A stretch of 37,198 nt of DNA from the IMG/VR virus record IMGVR_UViG_3300000956_000008; one strand, given 5' to 3'. Both the position numbers and the translations under genes were made by a program. Below are positions 60-25,145 of this stretch, piece after piece. Under the pieces are notes generated by a model. The model ran no database searches. It had not been told where the DNA came from and worked only from the letters and a program-made list of their open reading frames with translations. The stretch is from an uncultured virus (IMG/VR IMGVR_UViG_3300000956_000008) (lineage: Duplodnaviria; Heunggongvirae; Uroviricota; Caudoviricetes). Numbering within the stretch: position 1 is the first letter of the stretch; each line of letters opens with the position of its first letter.

Positions 60-135
60 TGGCGGCTCATAGGGAATTCGAATCCCTCCTTCCTGATAGA
101 CAGTCAAGCGTGCTAACCGCTAACACTAATGAGCC
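60..135 (-). tRNA. tRNA-Asp(GTC)
   Basis: Cloverleaf, anticodon loop CT GTC TA, T loop TTCGAAT, encoded CCA. Confidence 0.93.
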
Positions 136-139
136 AAAT

Positions 140-216
140 TGGTACTCTTGGTGGGACTCGAACCCAACATCAACTGATTGAAAGTCAGCCATCCTATACC
201 TTTAGACGACAAGAGC
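140..216 (-). tRNA. tRNA-Glu(TTC)
   Basis: GCTGA CT TTC AA TCAGT, GTTCGAGT T loop, CCA. Confidence 0.93.
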
Positions 217-224
217 ATTAATTC

Positions 225-350
225 TTATTTGCCGCTGACAGGGTGTTTGTCTTTGCGGGCTTTGTTCGGATGACGACCTTTGCTGTCTTTCAAGCGAGTC
301 TTGTCAACCGGAGCATGTTCTTTTGTTGCATCGTATGGACGTTGTGCCAT
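225..350 (-). CDS. 41-aa basic microprotein (MAQRPYDATKEHAPVDKTRLKDSKGRHPNKARKDKHPVSGK)
   Basis: Translated by hand; AAGGAG RBS upstream; fills the gap between tRNAs. Confidence 0.7.
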   Translation of the reverse strand: MAQRPYDATKEHAPVDKTRLKDSKGRHPNKARKDKHPVSGK

Positions 351-383
351 TTCTTTCTCTCCTTTTATTTAACTTGTTAGAGT

Positions 384-412
384 ATTAGAACATGGGAAAT
401 CCATATTGTCAA
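384..412 (-). promoter_or_regulatory. possible internal promoter in the tRNA cluster
   Basis: Perfect TTGACA, weak -10 (TCTAAT or TAATAC). Confidence 0.4.
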
Positions 413-441
413 TACCTTACTTCAAATTATTTTACTTTATT

Positions 442-516
442 TGGTGCTGGATGTAGGGTTCGAACCTACCTAAAGCGGCTTAGAAGACCGCTGCACATCC
501 AATATACCAATCCAGC
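442..516 (-). tRNA. tRNA-Arg(TCT)
   Basis: GCGGT CT TCT AA GCCGC, GTTCGAAC, CCA. Confidence 0.92.
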
Positions 517-521
517 TTATT

Positions 522-596
522 TGGCGGGCCATCGAGGTTACGATCCCCGTCCACATGGCTTTGGAGGCCAGTATGCTGCCATCACAATCAAGACCC
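522..596 (-). tRNA. tRNA-Trp(CCA), atypical T loop
   Basis: TGGC CT CCA AA GCCA; T loop GATCGTAA; CCA end. Confidence 0.85.
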
Positions 597-606
597 TTAA
601 TTCGTG

Positions 607-682
607 GGAGACACTTATAACACGCTGTCTCCTGAGCGTCACATCACCAGTTGGTTTGGTGATCATACCAAGGCGCGGTATG
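607..682 (-). ncRNA. candidate structured element: two hairpins plus H-type pseudoknot
   Basis: CATACC/GGTATG, ATCACCA/TGGTGAT, ACGCT/AGCGT with loop GGAGAC complementary to downstream GTCTCC. Confidence 0.4.
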
Positions 683-687
683 TTCTT

Positions 688-1248
688 TTATTCGTCACCG
701 TATCCATCAAATGGGTTGCACGTACCAACGAACTGGGCAAAGCCCTTGTTTTTAAACTTCTCTGTGGTCATCTTCCAGCCGAGCCGCACACGCAAATCGC
801 GTGTAGCACTCCAAGGCTTGACACAGTAGTATTCGAATCCAATCAGCTTGTTGCCTTCATACAGCTTGGCAAACATGCCGCCGGGAATCTTAGACTTGTC
901 AGAGATATCAGGATTACCTGTGATGGTCATTGTAGCTGTATCAGACCACTTGATGGCAGAGCGCTTGGCAAGGCCGTACAGAGGGTTTCTGAGCATCCAC
1001 ATGACACGGTTCACGTATCCTTTGAAGCCTGTTGTAACACCGAGGAACAAACAACGTTTGGCTACGAATCCTTGATCACCCTGTGGAGGGTTATCGTATG
1101 TACCCCAAAGCCATCCCCAAGTATATTCAGTCTTACCGTATTCCTGTGCCCGCGTGAACAGAGGAACGATCAATGCTGCGGGAAGTGCAGTGAAGATTGT
1201 CATCAAGATATCAACAACGAGTAGCATTGTGAATCGTAGGTAAATCAT
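688..1248 (-). CDS. hypothetical membrane protein, 186 aa
   Basis: GGAGG RBS before MIYLRF; hydrophobic N terminus; the longer ORF-track start overlaps tRNA-Gln. Confidence 0.8.
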   Translation of the reverse strand: MIYLRFTMLLVVDILMTIFTALPAALIVPLFTRAQEYGKTEYTWGWLWGTYDNPPQGDQGFVAKRCLFLGVTTGFKGYVNRVMWMLRNPLYGLAKRSAIKWSDTATMTITGNPDISDKSKIPGGMFAKLYEGNKLIGFEYYCVKPWSATRDLRVRLGWKMTTEKFKNKGFAQFVGTCNPFDGYGDE

Positions 1249-1265
1249 TGTGCCTCCAGTTTGTT

Positions 1266-1342
1266 TGGAAGAGGGAGTGGGGGTCGAACCCACAATTGCT
1301 GGATTCAAAGTCCAGTGCGTCTACCAGTTCCGCCATCCCTCA
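1266..1342 (-). tRNA. tRNA-Gln(TTG)
   Basis: CTGGA CT TTG AA TCCAG, GTTCGAC, CCA. Confidence 0.92.
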
Positions 1343-1351
1343 ATTAAATTA

Positions 1352-1475
1352 GTACCGAGAGCATTCTAAGGATGGCCATCCGTCGTCAACTCTCTAGTCA
1401 CGTTTCATCCGCTTTGTGAACCACACCCTTTCAGGTGTCCGCCGAGGCTTGGGAGGGAATCGAACCCTAACGCGA
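1352..1475 (-). ncRNA. permuted tRNA-like (YrlA/Y-RNA-like topology) element plus 3' hairpin
   Basis: T arm AGGG TTCGATT CCCT precedes a D-arm-like TTCA CAAAGCGGA TGAA; closing stem TCGCGTT/AACGTGA; no anticodon arm or CCA end. Confidence 0.5.
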
Positions 1476-1490
1476 TTACTTTGTGATGTT

Positions 1491-1564
1491 TGGTGCTTCG
1501 TGAGAGAATTGAACTCCCGTCTGTTGCGTGTAAAGCAACGGCCCTACCATTAGACGAACGAAGC
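1491..1564 (-). tRNA. tRNA-Val(TAC)
   Basis: GTTGC TT TAC AC GCAAC, GTTCAAT, CCA. Confidence 0.92.
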
Positions 1565-1569
1565 TTGTT

Positions 1570-1646
1570 TGGTGGGCCTTCCCAGACTCGAACTGGGAAC
1601 ATCTTCATTTTGAGTGAAGCATGACTGCCAATTGCATCAAAGGCCC
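1570..1646 (-). tRNA. tRNA-Leu(CAA), short variable loop
   Basis: CTTCA CT CAA AA TGAAG, 5-nt variable region, CCA. Confidence 0.88.
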
Positions 1647-1655
1647 ATTTTTGTT

Positions 1656-1745
1656 TGGAGGCGAGTGAGGGATTCAAACCCTCGGACCCCTTTCGGAGTC
1701 GCTAGTTTTCTAAACTAGAGCAATCGTTCACTCTACCAACTCGCC
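1656..1745 (-). tRNA. tRNA-Ser(AGA)
   Basis: CTAGT TT AGA AA ACTAG, long variable arm GACTCCGAAAGGGGTC, CCA. Confidence 0.88.
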
Positions 1746-1752
1746 AAAATTT

Positions 1753-1867
1753 AGAGGTTCAACTTGGGACTCATACCCCTACCGGACTATCGCAACATTC
1801 CGAGTGCAACCCAGCCGCGAACCCTCACGCTGATGCAGTTTTCTTTTCAGGAGCGACCTGAACATCT
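1753..1867 (-). ncRNA. candidate ~115-nt multibranch structured RNA between two tRNA-Ser genes
   Basis: Ends pair (AGATGTTCA/TGAACCTCT); internal stems TGCATCAGC..GCTGG.TTGCA, TCGGA/TCCGG, GGG/CCC. Confidence 0.45.
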
Positions 1868-1956
1868 TGGCAGAGAGCTGAGGTCTTGATCCCCAACCGT
1901 GTTAACGATCCCTTTGTTTAGCAAACAAGGCCAGCCACCTGACTGGGTAACTCTCT
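1868..1956 (-). tRNA. tRNA-Ser(GCT), atypical T loop
   Basis: CTTGT TT GCT AA ACAAA, long variable arm, T loop GATCAAG, GCCA end. Confidence 0.85.
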
Positions 1957-2042
1957 ATGTTAGTGGCAGCAAGCGTAACTGCCTGACATACTGTATTTCA
2001 GAGAATACGCCGCCTAACGTAATCTAACAGTACATCATATTT

Positions 2043-2120
2043 TGGTTGGACGCCCCGGACTTGAACCGGGAACCTACCGGGTAAAAGCCGGTTATTCTAA
2101 GCCAATTGAATTAGCGTCCA
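2043..2120 (-). tRNA. tRNA-Lys(TTT)
   Basis: ACCGG CT TTT AC CCGGT, GTTCAAGT, CCA. Confidence 0.93.
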
Positions 2121-3723: not shown

Positions 3724-4095
3724 ATGGCAAAACTAACTAAAGCACAACGTGAGTTCTTCTACGACTTCGCAAAGAATGACCTGAGCAATATCCTATTCCC
3801 TATCCTGCACGCACAGGGTTTGCAACTAACGCCAGAACTGGCTGAGAGCTTGCTGAACATGGTTGACCTTGATGCCTATACCGAAATCGTAGGTCAAGCG
3901 TTCCTTGAGCGTGTAGACTTCACCACCATTAAGCGTGTAGACAAGATCATGAAGAGCGATGAGTTCAACAACGTGATTGTTGCATCGCAGCAAGTGAGCG
4001 ACGCTGTAAACGATGAGCGTATCCGTATTCTCGCTGCACTGATTCCAGTTGCAGATGAAGAAGCTCTTGGTCTGACTGACGAACAAGAGGGCTAA
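3724..4095 (+). CDS. hypothetical protein, 123 aa
   Basis: AAGGAGG RBS, operon position. Confidence 0.85.
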   Translation: MAKLTKAQREFFYDFAKNDLSNILFPILHAQGLQLTPELAESLLNMVDLDAYTEIVGQAFLERVDFTTIKRVDKIMKSDEFNNVIVASQQVSDAVNDERIRILAALIPVADEEALGLTDEQEG

Positions 4096-17209: not shown

Positions 17210-17307
17210 TTGATTCTGCACTGAGTTTCTTGGTAAGCATTCTGGCAATGGTTAACGTTGGCCTTCCGAAGGAAGAGCCTAAACCCTCGGGTCGTTCTGT
17301 GGTATGA
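17206..17307 (+). CDS. 33-aa hydrophobic microprotein
   Basis: ATGA overlaps at both ends. Confidence 0.55.
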   Translation: MIDSALSFLVSILAMVNVGLPKEEPKPSGRSVV

Positions 17308-17879
17308 AGTGGTATACAGGCGTTGGATCGAGAGAGACGCCTGCCAACATTCTAACGCTGATGGAGGACGTGGGCTTTGCCCTCGCCTCCCAAGGCTGGA
17401 CACTAAGGTCTGGAGGTGCTGTAGGAGCGGATCAAGCGTTTGAAAGAGGAATGTTCAGGTTTGCTGGATTGGATGGTCCTTACGAGTGGACACCCGCTGA
17501 AATCTACCTACCTTGGGCAGGCTACGAAAACCATCACAGGTATACGCACGGAGGGTTAAACGTCCTTCCAAGCGAAATCCACTTTAACACTGAGTCCATT
17601 GCTGAGGGTATGGCGATGGCAGTTCATCCGGCTTGGGAAGCTTGCAAGCAAGGTGCAAGAAAGATGCACACTCGCAATGTGTTCCAAGTGCTTGGGAAAA
17701 CGCTTGACCAGCCTTCCAAAATGCTGATAGCATGGACGAAGTTGGATAAGCAAGGCAACCCTAAAGGTGGAACTGCCACTGCAATCAAACTGGCAACTGA
17801 GAATGGCGTTCAATGCTTCAACCTGAACAAGGCTGAGGATCATGAACGAATCACCAAATGGATAGGAGGCATGTCATGA
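17304..17879 (+). CDS. SLOG/DprA-like Rossmann-fold protein
   Basis: YTGVGSRETP, LRSGGAVGAD, RN..QVLG, GGTATAI. Confidence 0.82.
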   Translation: MKWYTGVGSRETPANILTLMEDVGFALASQGWTLRSGGAVGADQAFERGMFRFAGLDGPYEWTPAEIYLPWAGYENHHRYTHGGLNVLPSEIHFNTESIAEGMAMAVHPAWEACKQGARKMHTRNVFQVLGKTLDQPSKMLIAWTKLDKQGNPKGGTATAIKLATENGVQCFNLNKAEDHERITKWIGGMS

Positions 17880-19113: not shown

Positions 19114-19494
19114 ATGGATAAGTCGGTTAAGATTGAAGGTGCATTGTGGTACGAGTTTGACCAGAACAACTCGGGTGGTTACTATGAGCGTGACGACTTC
19201 GTGTCTGACGTAGTATTCGTTCAAGCTATGAACCCTGATCACGCGGAAGATATCATGCGTGAAATGATTGGTAAGGCTGACGCATGGAACTACTGTGACT
19301 GCTGCGGTGAACGCTGGTCGTTCTGGAACGTTAAAGGTTATGAAGTTCCAACTCGATACGGTGAGCCAGTGACAGAAGGTGTTGACTTGTATTCCAAAGA
19401 CGGGTATATTCTCTTCCACGGATTGAATGGTCGCACACTGAAATGGGATTGCAAGGGCAAGCCCGTTGAACTTGGTAGGAGGGTTAAGGAATGA
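19114..19494 (+). CDS. hypothetical protein (QNNSGG...CDCCGERW)
   Basis: AAGGAGG RBS. Confidence 0.85.
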   Translation: MDKSVKIEGALWYEFDQNNSGGYYERDDFVSDVVFVQAMNPDHAEDIMREMIGKADAWNYCDCCGERWSFWNVKGYEVPTRYGEPVTEGVDLYSKDGYILFHGLNGRTLKWDCKGKPVELGRRVKE

Positions 19495-20618
19495 GTTTGT
19501 TCGCTAAAGCTGGTGTACAAGATGCTGTGAATGTTGGCTTTAAGGTTGGTGAAGTGCCTGTCATTGCAGCACATACCGGTGTGGGTAAGAGTATGTTTCC
19601 GGCTGCCACGCAGCAGTCACCGATTGCACCAATGCAGAACCTCGTAGTGAGTGACGCTGACATTGATAAGATCGGTGAAGATGTGAGCCGTGAGATTGGT
19701 CAAACCACTCAGAAGATCATCGATAAGATGGTTGTAGGTAAGTTTGACGACTTGGGTGCAATCCTGACCCAAATCACTGGCGAAGTGGACAAGCTCGACC
19801 CAGCTTCCTTGCAAAAGGGTGGTATGATCGGCTGGATGCAGAACAAGTTTACTGACGTGAAGGCCACTCTCACCATGCGGTTGAAGAGCGCTCAAGGAGT
19901 GTTCGACAATCTTGAAGGTAAGATTTCCTCGCACATCACTGTTCAACAGGAGTGGGTGAAGGACTTGGAAGCTTTGTATAATGAAAACTTCCACCACTAC
20001 CAAAAGATCATCAAGGAAATGCAGGATGTGGAACGTCTAATCGGCTATGTCGATGACCAGATTAAGAGCTGGCCTGAGATTGACCTGAGCAGCCCAACCG
20101 CTGCAATGTCTATCCAACAGACACGTGACGCTGAATCCAAGCTTAACCGCTTGCGTATGAAGCATGACAACCTGATCCGTCTGAAGGCGATGACCGAGCT
20201 GAACAGCCCGAAGATTCGTCAGCAGCAGGATACAAGTCGTGTGACTATCAGCACGTTGAAGGATATCATCAGTCAGACTATTCCTATCGTCAAGATGGAG
20301 TTTGCACTGTACATCCAGACAGTGGATAGCCAGAAGAGTATCAAACTGACCAACGAGGTGCGAACTTTGGCAACAAAAACCTTGATCAAAGGTGCTGACG
20401 GTGCTAAGATGGCTGCCATTGAAAGCGCTAAAGCATTGAACACCCCGGTGATCACAAGCGACACGCTTCAAATACTGCGTAACCGTGTAATGGAAACCGT
20501 AGTGGAAGTAAAACGGGTTGAATCTGATGCTCAGATCAAACGTGAACAAGAAGCAGTACAGATTGTAGAAGGGCAAAAATCGCTGTTGACGGCGTTGAAA
20601 GCTTCCGGTACAATCTAA
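19491..20618 (+). CDS. telA: toxic anion resistance protein, TelA/KlaA family
   Basis: 375-aa coiled-coil protein; LYNEN, PKIR..Q and TIP motifs; next to vWA/TerC/TerD. Confidence 0.75.
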   Translation: MSLFAKAGVQDAVNVGFKVGEVPVIAAHTGVGKSMFPAATQQSPIAPMQNLVVSDADIDKIGEDVSREIGQTTQKIIDKMVVGKFDDLGAILTQITGEVDKLDPASLQKGGMIGWMQNKFTDVKATLTMRLKSAQGVFDNLEGKISSHITVQQEWVKDLEALYNENFHHYQKIIKEMQDVERLIGYVDDQIKSWPEIDLSSPTAAMSIQQTRDAESKLNRLRMKHDNLIRLKAMTELNSPKIRQQQDTSRVTISTLKDIISQTIPIVKMEFALYIQTVDSQKSIKLTNEVRTLATKTLIKGADGAKMAAIESAKALNTPVITSDTLQILRNRVMETVVEVKRVESDAQIKREQEAVQIVEGQKSLLTALKASGTI

Positions 20619-20639
20619 CACACATTCAAAGGAGGATAT

Positions 20640-21290
20640 ATGGGTATGCCAATGTTAGACCTGACTAAATCGCTGGAACTGAATCTCGAAAAGGCTCAGA
20701 TTTTCACACCAATCACTATGGCCGTTAAGCTGGCTGTAGACAAATCTGGTAGCATGGACGACGAGTTCCGCTGCGGTTGGGTACAAGACACTATCGACCT
20801 GTTCTTGGCTGCTGCCATGAAGTTTGACGATGACGGTAAGATGGAGATTGGTTTCTTCAACACCAGTTTTGACCGCACTCCAGATGCAACTGTTGACGAC
20901 CACGGCCAGTACGTTCGTAAGCACCGCATCACCGCTGGTGGCGGCACCAACTTCGCAGATGCTATCAAAGGTCTGAAGGGGAGTGCAACCAAGCGTGGCC
21001 TGTTCGGTTTCGGCGGTTCCAAGCCTGCAACCCCAACCTACATTGGCTTCATCACTGACGGCAGCAACAACGATCAGCGTGACTTCGAAGCTCAACTGGA
21101 CTCGTTGGAAAACACCTTCGTACAGATCGTGGCAATCGGCAACGGCGTTGACAAGCGTTACCTTGACTTCATCGCTGCGAAGTACGACACTGTTGAAGTG
21201 CTGTACATCCCGAATCCGAAGGCTGTAGATCAGAACAAGTTCTATGAGCTGATTCTGAACGAAGAGTTCAAAGCTTTCGCAGTAAAGTGA
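20640..21290 (+). CDS. vWA domain protein, Ter-associated
   Basis: MIDAS DKSGSM, FDDDG, GGT, FITDG. Confidence 0.88.
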   Translation: MGMPMLDLTKSLELNLEKAQIFTPITMAVKLAVDKSGSMDDEFRCGWVQDTIDLFLAAAMKFDDDGKMEIGFFNTSFDRTPDATVDDHGQYVRKHRITAGGGTNFADAIKGLKGSATKRGLFGFGGSKPATPTYIGFITDGSNNDQRDFEAQLDSLENTFVQIVAIGNGVDKRYLDFIAAKYDTVEVLYIPNPKAVDQNKFYELILNEEFKAFAVK

Positions 21291-21325
21291 TTGACAACCG
21301 AGGGGCTTATCGCTAAGATAGCCCC
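21291..21325 (+). promoter_or_regulatory. sigma70 promoter with inverted repeat enclosing the -10
   Basis: TTGACA-N17-TAAGAT; GGGGCT/AGCCCC. Confidence 0.8.
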
Positions 21326-21355
21326 ACACAAACAAACTGAAAGGGGAACAACATA

Positions 21356-22033
21356 ATGGAATTTTTCGCATCGCTAGACTGGGCTGTGATCTTCAAGATC
21401 GTGATGGTTGACTTGCTTCTCGGCCTTGACAACGCCATCGTAATTGCTCTAGCATGTGCTACACTGGCTGTAAGTGTTCGTGGTAAGGCAATCCTTCTGG
21501 GTACTGCTGGCGCCATCGCACTCCGAGCTGTCCTGCTGGTCTTCGCAACGTTCCTCTTGGGCGTTCCGTTCCTGAAGTTGGTAGCTGGTCTGTACCTTGT
21601 CTGGATTGGTTACTCGCTTCTGACTGGACACGATGAACCACACGAAGTTGCACAGAAAGATACTATCTGGGGCGCTGTTTGGACTATCATCGTAGCTGAC
21701 TTCATGCTCTCGCTGGACAACGTAATGGCTGTAGCTGGTGCCGCTTCTGGTTCGGAACACTCGACAATCTACGCAATCGCTGGTATTGTTCTGTCGATCC
21801 CAATCATCATCTACGGTGCTAAATACCTGAGCGGTTTGATGGATCGTTTCAAGATCATCATCTGGATCGGTGCTGCAATGTTGGGTGTAGTTGGTGCTGA
21901 AATGCTGGTGAGTGATCCATTCTTCGTGAGCCACGTTGGTGAGGTTAACCACTTGCTTGCCAAGACTGTAGGTGGTCTGATTGTTGTAGCTGCTGCTTTC
22001 GCCAACAAACGTTTTGTCGCTAAAACGGCTTAA
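21356..22033 (+). CDS. terC: TerC-family integral membrane protein
   Basis: DLLLGLDNAIVI, ADFMLSLDNVMAV, about 7 TM segments. Confidence 0.92.
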   Translation: MEFFASLDWAVIFKIVMVDLLLGLDNAIVIALACATLAVSVRGKAILLGTAGAIALRAVLLVFATFLLGVPFLKLVAGLYLVWIGYSLLTGHDEPHEVAQKDTIWGAVWTIIVADFMLSLDNVMAVAGAASGSEHSTIYAIAGIVLSIPIIIYGAKYLSGLMDRFKIIIWIGAAMLGVVGAEMLVSDPFFVSHVGEVNHLLAKTVGGLIVVAAAFANKRFVAKTA

Positions 22034-22088
22034 CACCAAACTGAAAAAGAGGGGCACAACGCCCCTCAACACTAAAGAGGACTTGATA

Positions 22089-22664
22089 ATGGAGCTTAAC
22101 TTGAGCAAAAATACTATGATGTTGGACCTGACCAAAGCCGCACCACAACTGACCCGCCTGCGTGGTCTGCTGAACTGGGACTGCCATCCGGTACATGGTT
22201 CTTCGAAAGAATACGGTTTTGACCTTGATGTGTTCGCCTTCTGCACCGATGCAAACGGCAGTATTCAAGGCAACATGAACAACGTTGTATTCTTCAACAA
22301 CATGAGTGCTTTCGACGGAGCTGTTGTTTACCCACGTGATAACCGTACTGGCGAAGGTGATGATGACGAAGAGCTGATCACTGACGTGACCAAGATTCCG
22401 GCTCATATCCACAAGATTGAACACTTCGTGTTCTTGCACGAAGCAGCAAAACGCGGTCAGGACTTCTCGATGATCAAGAATGGTAGCTTCAAACTGTTCG
22501 ATCAGAACAACATCCTGATTCAGGATTACAAGCTGCAAACCTTCGTTAACGGCACTGCCCTGCACATCGGCACCCTGCAACGAGTGGCTGGCGGTTGGGG
22601 CTTCCAGCCTGTAGGTGAGTCAGCAGTAGCTGATCCAAACCAAGTGCTGCAAGCTTTCGCGTAA
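22089..22664 (+). CDS. terD: TerD-family protein
   Basis: LNWD, FDLDVFA, VFFNN, DNRTGEGDDDEE, WGFQPVG. Confidence 0.92.
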   Translation: MELNLSKNTMMLDLTKAAPQLTRLRGLLNWDCHPVHGSSKEYGFDLDVFAFCTDANGSIQGNMNNVVFFNNMSAFDGAVVYPRDNRTGEGDDDEELITDVTKIPAHIHKIEHFVFLHEAAKRGQDFSMIKNGSFKLFDQNNILIQDYKLQTFVNGTALHIGTLQRVAGGWGFQPVGESAVADPNQVLQAFA

Positions 22665-23124: not shown

Positions 23125-23511
23125 ATGAAAATTGCATCTATCAAACGTGACGACTTCGGTGGTGAACGCTGGTATTCTTACGAAGGCTACGCAATCACCC
23201 TTGAAGATGGAACTCAAATCAAAATGGGTATTGACAATGGTCAGTCCTGCTGCGAGAATTGGGGCTACCTAATGTCTGAGGACAACCTCAGCGAGTATGT
23301 TGGTGCGGAGTATCTGGGCATCGAGGCTGTAGGCCAAGCTCTGGAACACGTCGAAATCAAAGGTGTCTACGAAGGTGGCATCATGTTCATCAACATCAAC
23401 ACTTCCAAGGGTATCTTGCAGTTTGTGGCTTACAACGAGCACAACGGCTACTACTCTCACCAAGCGGTGGTAATTGAAGATGGAACAGTTACACACTCCG
23501 AAAGTCTGTAA
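23125..23511 (+). CDS. hypothetical protein (QSCCE...NEHNGYYSH)
   Basis: AAGGAG RBS. Confidence 0.85.
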   Translation: MKIASIKRDDFGGERWYSYEGYAITLEDGTQIKMGIDNGQSCCENWGYLMSEDNLSEYVGAEYLGIEAVGQALEHVEIKGVYEGGIMFININTSKGILQFVAYNEHNGYYSHQAVVIEDGTVTHSESL

Positions 23512-24096: not shown

Positions 24097-24168
24097 ATGA
24101 CAGCAACTGATTTCTGGTTTATATACATGATGCTCTTGGTGCTGGTTGTCGTAGCAGGTGCAACATGA
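24097..24168 (+). CDS. 23-aa single-TM microprotein
   Basis: AGGAGG RBS; ATGA overlap with next gene. Confidence 0.6.
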   Translation: MTATDFWFIYMMLLVLVVVAGAT

Positions 24169-24593
24169 CAGACAAACGACCTTGTTACACAATGGAAACT
24201 GGCTTCACCAGCAGTGACTTCTCCTTCTATCGCAGAAGCCTGAACAGCCTTGATGTTGGGCGTTCCCAAGTTTATGATTTGCAAAGCAGAGCTGGCAAAG
24301 AGAAGTGGTATCTGGAAGACACCTACACATGGAGAGGAAACTTCACGTCTGAGACTGTGCTAGTGTTGACCAACGACAAGGGCGTACAGATCGAGACAGC
24401 TTCCTTCGGATGGAAACGTATTCCTACGGAACATGAGCTTGCACTGAAAGAGAAACGAGAGTATCATGCCTTCATCAACGACCTCGCAGCCTTAGAGGCT
24501 CCTGCTGGCTTACGACGCTGGCACTCTGAGGTTATCGAAATGTTCGAACACACCTACGAAGAAATCCTCTACTACGGAGACGATGATGCTTAA
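24165..24593 (+). CDS. hypothetical protein, 142 aa
   Basis: Operon coupling. Confidence 0.8.
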   Translation: MTDKRPCYTMETGFTSSDFSFYRRSLNSLDVGRSQVYDLQSRAGKEKWYLEDTYTWRGNFTSETVLVLTNDKGVQIETASFGWKRIPTEHELALKEKREYHAFINDLAALEAPAGLRRWHSEVIEMFEHTYEEILYYGDDDA

Positions 24594-25026
24594 CCCACAT
24601 GACCTACGAATCACCAGCTACCTGCCTCAGTCTGGACACGGAGCTGGCGGAATGACCGTTGGACTCACCACCAGTGGTATTATCGTACATCATATGCCTT
24701 CTGGCCTTGGTGTAAGCTGTGACAGTGAGCGGAGTCAGCACCAGAATAAAGAGAAAGCTTTACAACTGCTGGAAGCTCTTATATTTACTGCTGAGAGTGA
24801 GAAAAGCTATAAAGCAGCCATCCTTTCGCCTGTGCTGTCTACACCGGATAGGGTGAGGATGATCAAAGAAGTGCGGATACAAGCAGGCTGTGGACTCAAA
24901 GAGGCGAAGGAAGCAGTAGACCAGTTCTATGATGTTGAAATGGCTATCTTGCACTTGAAGATGAAGAGCCCAATCATCTGTACAATGCCTCAAGGGCATC
25001 CCTCACACTGTGGGTGTGAATGGTGA
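24583..25026 (+). CDS. release-factor (RF-1 domain)-like protein, GGQ replaced by GGM, fused to an L7/L12-CTD- or EF-Ts-N-like domain
   Basis: GAGGMTV...HMPSGLGVSCDSERSQHQNKEKAL; IKEVRIQAGCGLKEAKEAVD. Confidence 0.8.
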   Translation: MMLNPHDLRITSYLPQSGHGAGGMTVGLTTSGIIVHHMPSGLGVSCDSERSQHQNKEKALQLLEALIFTAESEKSYKAAILSPVLSTPDRVRMIKEVRIQAGCGLKEAKEAVDQFYDVEMAILHLKMKSPIICTMPQGHPSHCGCEW

Positions 25027-25145
25027 AGGGCGAATCCCCAACAGGCTGGACAGCCTATGTGCGTGCGTACAAAGAGAAGCATCCTGATGTAATCGTAGAT
25101 TACAAGGAGCTGATGAAACAATACATAAAAGGAGAACCCGTATGA
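25020..25145 (+). CDS. 41-aa hypothetical protein
   Basis: Translated by hand; ATGA overlap with next gene. Confidence 0.6.
   Translation: MVKGESPTGWTAYVRAYKEKHPDVIVDYKELMKQYIKGEPV

Follow-up and report, generated by a model that had tools for sequence, protein, structure and literature searches.

The window, by which we mean the whole stretch of 37,198 nucleotides of uncultured viral DNA that was analysed, encodes on its + strand a small protein in which a release factor (RF) domain is followed by a module resembling both ribosomal protein L12 and elongation factor EF-Ts. The gene, its parts and its two immediate neighbours are the following.

24165..24593, + strand: upstream ORF of 142 aa, phrog_37145 (PHROG E=4.4e-57), with an 11-nt overlap with the start of the RF-like gene
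24583..25026, + strand: RF-like gene of 147 aa, from the ORF list, phrog_35727 (E=7.6e-56)
24589..24813, + strand: RF domain 3 (RF-1/GGQ domain), residues 3-77, from PF00472, PDB RF1, Foldseek and AF2
24646..24654, + strand: GGM (GGC GGA ATG), residues 22-24, at the catalytic GGQ site, from the sequence and the RF1 alignment
24727..24747, + strand: ERSQHQN motif at the start of the long helix, from alignment A1, aligned to ERSQHKN of RF1
24832..24927, + strand: match to L12 helices 4-5, residues 84-115, from hhalign, PF00542 and conservation
24841..24963, + strand: predicted three-helix UBA-like bundle, residues 87-127, from AF2, Foldseek, VIA and hhalign
24964..25023, + strand: Cys/His tail ...CTMPQGHPSHCGCEW (last 20 residues), modelled with low confidence (pLDDT <50)
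25020..25145, + strand: downstream ORF of 41 aa, phrog_12741 (PHROG E=1.8e-21), whose ATG overlaps the stop of the RF-like gene

The profile of PHROG 35727, a group without assigned function, is matched over positions 1-135 of 162 by residues 2-129 of the RF-like protein. The gene is likelier to start at its second ATG, at 24586, because a GGAG (24576-24579) lies 6 nt before it; ML(D/N)P is the N-terminus of most relatives. The Gly and Ala codons preceding Met24 likewise make a GGAG, 8 nt 5' of that ATG (window 24576-24654), and gene calls starting at this internal methionine occur in 5/103 database relatives. We rejected it as the start of the main product, since residues 1-23 are strongly conserved. 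We also rejected a prfB-like case in which a programmed +1 frameshift would connect the upstream ORF with the RF-like frame, because the upstream protein has no RF-like Pfam match and because in one related locus (L007) the upstream ORF ends ~127 nt before the RF-like start.

The window phage is akin to the ~98-kb phiPsa374/phiPsa315 group of Pseudomonas phages, genus Otagovirus, and its nearest record (G001) has a single L12-like match, which lies inside the same RF-like gene. The phrog_37145 ORF adjoins the RF-like gene in 4/7 related loci (L004, L005, L006, L008), is found nearby in L007 and is represented by just its C-terminal third in L001 and L009, while the phrog_12741 ORF is matched downstream in 5/7. 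All these loci belong to one phage group, and the gene order that they have in common therefore says little on partnership. For the upstream ORF (24165-24593), neither a family nor a confident fold was found, Pfam and the ESM Atlas giving no usable match. Upstream of the RF-like gene lies a tellurite-resistance-like set (19491-22664, + strand), followed by small ORFs without assigned function.

19114-19494, + strand: DUF7296, preceding the tellurite-resistance-like set
19491-20618, + strand: TelA, in the tellurite-resistance-like set
20640-21290, + strand: TerF-type vWA protein, in the same set
21356-22033, + strand: TerC, in the same set
22014-22664, + strand: TerD, in the same set
23125-23511, + strand: DUF7448, after the set

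A weak DprA/SLOG-like match lies at 17304-17879 on the + strand (PF02481, E=8.9e-5, below the cut-off). Eight tRNA genes (Asp, Glu, Arg-tct, Gln, Val, Leu-caa, Ser-aga, Lys) occupy window positions 60-2120 on the - strand, opposite in orientation to the ORFs after them.

A word-indexed search returned 104 proteins at E<=1e-3 among 123 candidates, one of which (P0104, RF2-like with a PCRF domain) was set aside, leaving 103 family members. According to the precomputed Pfam column, PF00472 and PF00542 are both present in 82/103 members, and 37/103 are encoded on contigs of 89-101 kb. By tblastn the gene was found in 94 phage records; query coverage is 80% or more in 36 of them, and most of the best matches listed come from Pseudomonas phages of ~94-101 kb. 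As judged from these matches, this is a family of ~100 proteins, all in Otagovirus-like Pseudomonas phages of ~95-100 kb. The RF-like gene is thus already in databases, annotated as 'peptide chain release factor 1' or as hypothetical, and the former name is misleading. Our literature searches turned up neither an account of this family nor one of a GGM variant; in the phiPsa374 literature the release-factor gene appears only as a table entry, and Burroughs & Aravind 2019 mentions neither 'phage' nor 'L12' (0 occurrences each).

The first-pass annotation had read the N-terminal half as domain 3 of a class I release factor with GGM in place of the catalytic GGQ and with the codon-recognition domains absent, and our searches bear out all of this. 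Residues 3-77 match Pfam PF00472 (RF-1) with E=6.3e-15 (55.6 bits, the cut-off being 35), and phmmer against the PDB, at E=1.3e-13, retrieved residues 217-290 of E. coli RF1, whose GAGGQ falls opposite GAGGM. In the AF2 model of the whole protein, built from a 53-sequence alignment (A1; mean pLDDT 75.7), this half is predicted to form strands at residues 8-13, 32-37 and 42-46 and a 29-residue helix at 52-80; the best Foldseek matches of the model are domain 3 of RF1/RF2 (E=1.9e-5), with 45-47% identity to E. coli RF1 chains over ~77-80 aligned columns. The best NCBIfam match, TIGR00019 prfA over positions 219-290, scored 60.5 bits against a cut-off of 423, and prfB 55.1 bits against 370, all NCBIfam scores being far below the whole-protein cut-offs. 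A PCRF/codon-recognition domain (PF03462; PxT or SPF reader) was found neither by Pfam at E<=10 nor by NCBIfam. The RF core is invariant in the 53 relatives of alignment A1, both in the ERSQxxN motif (E49, R50, S51, Q52, N55) and at H37 and G43. The GGQ tripeptide that is invariant in class I RF1/RF2 is replaced by GGM at residues 22-24 of the phage protein.

Conservation of GGM, which the first-pass annotation had proposed to check, was tallied over the 103 relatives and the window protein (n=104; P0050, P0068 and P0079 assigned by eye). The loop reads GGM in 80/104, GGQ in 12/104, GGL in 1/104 (P0027) and SGM in 2/104 (P0068, P0079); the GG is absent from 4/104 (P0095, P0100, P0101, P0103), and in 5/104 the gene call begins at the Met (P0002, P0061, P0081, P0090, P0099). 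Only three residues, M (80), Q (12) and L (1), thus follow the 93 intact GG pairs, and one GGQ member (L007) was verified on DNA. The residue after GGQ is H (6), Q (4) or M (2), GGQH being the reading of RF1, and the residue after GGM is T (54), S (9), Q (9), M (4), A (2) or R (2). In alignment A1, conservation of the loop equals that of the core (G22 47/52, G23 52/53, V26 47/52, G27 49/52, S31 49/53, G32 51/53), and the four loop-less and two SGM proteins keep the ERSQxxN core and the C-terminal module.

A quick IQ-TREE tree was made of 93 rows, leaving out P0104, the five truncated calls and six proteins of <120 aa, two of them GGQ. Parsimony counts 9 changes between Q and M on this tree, a figure to be read with its poor resolution, as 41/90 inner branches are open and the starred branches alone force only 2 Q changes. 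Two starred sister pairs differ at the Q position, P0053(M)/P0058(Q) and P0008(M)/P0009(Q), and the AU test rejects a single clade of the ten GGQ rows (lnL difference 316.8, p=1.57e-6), on an alignment that included the loop columns, which should, if anything, favour a grouping of the Q rows. Phage recombination could yield the same pattern of Q/M switching. The end branches of P0103 (1.42) and P0095 (1.2) are long against a median of 0.25, and for this reason a change of function after loss of the loop fits these two.

The earlier description of the protein as catalytically dead was over-confident, and the family data argue against a simple inactivation. Since the site holds M, Q or L only, the loop is conserved, and Q and M swap between sisters, Met looks selected rather than decayed, and the pattern across relatives is that of a site under selection, not drifting. 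The four loop-less members keep the rest of the protein; therefore a non-catalytic function suffices at least in those. We lean, by a small step, towards GGM members being release-competent. To our knowledge, Gln is present in every characterised active release factor, and GGQ is regarded as invariant; RF1 reportedly keeps substantial release activity with many substitutions of Gln, a finding said to go back to Shaw and Green in 2007. The catalytic group is given as the backbone amide of Gln in a passage of PMC6742477, and the relevant lines of PMC5799190 state that release is abolished by the glycine mutations and that the Gln side chain has a packing role. In the model of Aleksandrova et al. 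2025, as relayed in a section of PMC13672221, the nucleophile is the 2'-OH of A76, and the part of methyl-Gln is mainly to position the motif.

The main competing explanation is an inert plug or decoy of the A site and the peptidyl-transferase centre (PTC), a possibility that we take seriously and nevertheless consider rather unlikely. The protein would enter the PTC without releasing the peptide while its module holds or titrates a translational GTPase, and would block selected ribosomes, either for host shut-off or to shield peptidyl-tRNA from host rescue or defence factors. Active factors otherwise all have Gln, and mutating it, as each of the GGQ residues, is lethal in RF1/RF2 according to a passage of PMC9589212, but relaxed catalysis should let the residue vary, and only M, Q and L are seen. 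The strongest invariants of the family are indeed the ERSQxxN core and the L12-like motif rather than the Q position, yet sister phages carry GGQH or GGM at one and the same locus, suggesting that both do the same work. Inactive relatives with the RF fold are known, Dom34 and MRPS35 being named in part of PMC6514570, although a general A-site blocker would halt phage translation too. The retention of the rest of the protein in the four loop-less and two SGM members also fits a plug, but the branches of the loop-less members are long, as they would be had the function changed.

The first-pass annotation had further considered a decoy of PrmC, the RF glutamine methyltransferase. On our understanding of such a decoy, GGM would occupy PrmC unmethylated and thereby lessen the methylation of host RFs. 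The domain 3 fold is the PrmC substrate, and PDB 2b3t is among the matches, but the 12 relatives with GGQ would be plain substrates, loop-less members could not bind PrmC via the loop, and the conserved C-terminal module would be left without a role; we give this explanation hardly any credence.

For the C-terminal half, a likeness to both the CTD of L12 and the N-terminal domain of EF-Ts had been noticed earlier, and both resemblances are real, in the sense that the alignments score above chance. With hhalign, the match to E. coli L12 residues 60-91 reached 95% (E=2.2e-8) and that to E. coli EF-Ts residues 7-44 65% (E=6e-5), and in BLASTP the C-terminal 66 aa gave 13/26 identities with L12 (E=5e-6; E. 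coli L12 residues 64-89) and 12/40 identities and 26/40 positives with EF-Ts (E=3e-5). The family profile found L12 in the PDB with E=4.9e-7, while Pfam PF00542 matched residues 89-114 to profile positions 11-36 of 67 at E=4.2e-5 (24.2 bits, under the cut-off of 25.9). In sequence, the first two helices of the module resemble L12 helices 4-5 most; the similarity to the N-terminal domain of EF-Ts, though weaker, extends over all three helices. The bundle predicted by AF2 consists of helices 87-101, 105-115 and 118-127 (pLDDT ~90) and recurs when the C-terminal 64 residues are modelled separately. Fold searches of this 41-residue module listed almost exclusively UBA, CUE, NAC-UBA and EF-Ts N-terminal domains. 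Foldseek gave E>0.3 with an rmsd of 1.5-1.7 A over ~40 columns and 32% identity to E. coli EF-Ts, the EF-Ts matches being chains in EF-Tu:EF-Ts and Q-beta replicase structures, and VIA gave Z up to 6.3, with EF-Ts chains at Z 4.9-6.2. Such scores are common for small helical models, and we therefore take the fold as UBA-like and not as proof of kinship with EF-Ts. An L12 chain is absent among the best 50 matches listed by Foldseek and VIA for the C-terminal model, a result that is compatible with kinship to L12.

The module is only a part of either counterpart. The bL12 model TIGR00855 scored 21.9 bits against 84.4 and was matched only at positions 53-94, the N-terminal L10-binding/dimerisation domain of bL12 not being found with it in the RF-like protein. 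A complete alpha/beta L12 CTD was likewise not found, PF00542 staying below its gathering score and strands being absent from the models, nor was the nucleotide-exchange core domain of EF-Ts, the alignment covering EF-Ts residues 7-44 only. Across the family, V91, M93, I94, K95, V97, R98, G102, G104, L105, K109 and D113 are invariant or near-invariant. V91, I94, K95 and R98 align with V66, I69, K70 and R73 of L12 (mature numbering), which we take to be contact residues for EF-Tu, and the G-x-G-L-K-E-A-K turn is kept. Helices 4 and 5 of the L12 CTD bind helix D of EF-Tu, and the L12/EF-Tu interface is homologous to the EF-Ts/EF-Tu interface, as set out in a portion of PMC5770553.

The recruitment of EF-Tu or EF-G that the first-pass annotation proposed may be read from the conserved L12 helix 4-5 motif, and from this only. 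A complex prediction of P. aeruginosa EF-Tu with residues 84-130 (alignment A1) scored 0.01 and weighs neither way. The proposal is weakened by the occurrence of the hairpin in thousands of proteins that do not look like translation proteins. When the C-terminal alignment was used for an exhaustive profile search, 2450 representative proteins matched at E<=0.001, 271 of them at E<=1e-10, most of the 2450 carrying 3-14 tandem copies; the hairpin is thus a widely reused unit. A Pfam scan of 22 hairpin proteins identified 20 as Ribosomal_L12 repeats, often also with DUF6793, and some hairpin proteins have LRV, PASTA or NHL domains or a membrane anchor. Two hairpin proteins that were inspected have hydrophobic N-termini. 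Many of the hairpin-repeat proteins among P0105-P0250 are ~210 aa long with a hydrophobic N-terminus.

An RF domain was found by our own HMM in 0/146 of the best non-family hairpin matches (3/3 positive controls were detected), and the fusion of an RF domain to the hairpin consequently appears confined to this phage family. This bears on a further alternative, in which the protein would work away from the ribosome as a soluble mimic of the L12 stalk tip, its hairpin competing for EF-Tu, EF-G, IF2 or RF3 and its RF domain being secondary. The helix 4-5 positions are conserved as such a mimic would have it, but conservation is as strict in the RF core as in the hairpin. The cassette does occur without a recognisable RF domain in P0109 (64 aa) and P0123 (169 aa), and BFVD lists an EF-Ts-like 59-aa phage protein, yet both Pfam domains are present in 82/103 database relatives, and the 0/146 among other best hairpin carriers indicates that the fusion itself is kept by the family. 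Single L12 CTDs moreover bind factors weakly, and altogether we judge a free stalk mimic very improbable. As for the two proteins themselves, P0109 is the hairpin cassette alone, and P0123 carries the hairpin and a four-cysteine tail behind a Cys-rich N-terminus, is negative with the RF-domain HMM and by tblastn has ~30% identity to RF-like genes of Otagovirus-type phages.

The end of the protein is more variable. A four-cysteine tail of the form C-x-C-GGD-...-GC-x-NW is present in 61/104 members and a QGHPxHCGC tail in 7/104, the window protein included, while a cysteine after the hairpin is absent in 16/104. In one related locus (L008), the window-tail motif is found at the C-terminal end CCMPQGHPSHCGCNW of a separate 59-aa ORF (3725-3904, + strand), and this QGHPSHCGC-ending ORF lies just downstream of an RF-like gene with the four-cysteine tail. 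Because the motif there ends a separate downstream ORF, the tail of the window protein probably came from a deletion that fused the RF-like gene to a neighbouring small ORF.

From the domain identities, the conservation pattern and the family distribution observed here, we infer how the protein may bind the ribosome, take part in hydrolysis, choose its partner and serve the phage. Most likely it acts on host ribosomes. The explanation that we prefer, tentatively and at somewhat less than an even chance, is an ArfB-like, codon-independent factor of the A site and PTC with a selected GGM loop and a docking module of the L12/EF-Ts type. The phage would make a stop-codon-independent RF-like protein out of pieces of two host translation components. 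Its RF1-type domain 3 would most likely enter the A site of the large subunit and place the GG(M/Q) loop in the PTC, where Met would be a selected replacement of Gln rather than a sign of decay and GGM members may promote reaction of, or at least tightly engage, the peptidyl-tRNA; the reading of GGQ members as GGQH, like RF1, in 6/12 speaks for this explanation. In place of the mRNA-channel tail of ArfB, the three-helix module with the factor-binding helices 4-5 of L12 could dock either onto the ribosome, at its factor-binding region, or onto a translational GTPase. Against such docking counts the geometry of the protein, in that only ~6 residues link the long helix to the module in the AF2 model, and RF geometry with a linker of this length would put the module near the decoding centre and not the GTPase centre. 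The likely role of the ArfB-like factor would be to free or re-route stalled host ribosomes early in infection by a phage that carries its own tRNA set. An anti-defence role, which the first-pass annotation had brought up, is speculation.

A more far-reaching version, which we hold to be improbable, joins catalysis and delivery: GGM would be a working catalytic loop in which Met takes the packing role of N5-methyl-glutamine, independently of PrmC, and the module would ride on or be handed over by a GTPase, e.g., EF-Tu. If it were true, the family would be a natural exception to the 'universal' GGQ and a bacterial-virus counterpart of the GTPase-delivered eRF1 or Dom34, of use in clearing stalled ribosomes in infection or under tRNA- or mRNA-targeting defence. 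The ~100 natural sequences, with their preference for Met, their tolerance of Gln and the exchange of the two between close relatives, offer a direct test of what the Gln side chain and its methylation contribute, and the factor-binding hairpin of L12 is a new fusion partner for a release-factor domain. Should the catalytic or docking part of the ArfB-like explanation be true, phages would have a new way to manipulate or rescue host ribosomes; should the protein be inert, it would be a ready-made natural probe of the PTC or A site.

Compared with known systems, the N-terminal half has the fold and core motifs of domain 3 of bacterial RF1 (prfA), with the GAGG-x-V loop and the ERSQHxNK helix kept, but it differs from RF1 in lacking domains 1, 2 and 4 and the PxT reader, in having GGM for GGQ and TVG for HVN, and in three extra residues before the loop. 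With ArfB (YaeJ)/ICT1 it shares in principle the layout described in part of PMC3950681, namely a GGQ-type domain, a linker and a target-selecting C-terminal element. The sequence match to ArfB is weak (PDB 4v95, E=0.0027; NCBIfam ArfB NF006718, 17 bits against a cut-off of 100), and the feature that defines ArfB/ICT1 in the same pages of PMC3950681, a basic C-terminal helix entering the empty mRNA channel, is missing from the phage protein, which has a UBA-like bundle with a Cys/His tail, and GGM, instead. The module keeps the V, I, K, R and G-G-L-K-E-A-K positions of helices 4-5 of the bL12 CTD throughout the phage family, whereas it is modelled as three helices without strands and has no L10-binding N-terminal domain. 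Its predicted three-helix extent matches that of the N-terminal UBA-like domain of EF-Ts, from which it differs by weaker statistics and by the lack of the EF-Ts core and dimerisation domain. Stand-alone RF domain 3 proteins are common in phages, and the phage RF-1 proteins phrog_20323, phrog_3122 and D9I667 of Acinetobacter phage 133 likewise consist of domain 3 without codon readers, but these are 64-136 aa long and comprise the domain only, whereas phrog_35727 adds the L12-like module and mostly has GGM. The family is best placed with the phage stand-alone RF domains already known, from which it departs by GGM and the L12-like module.
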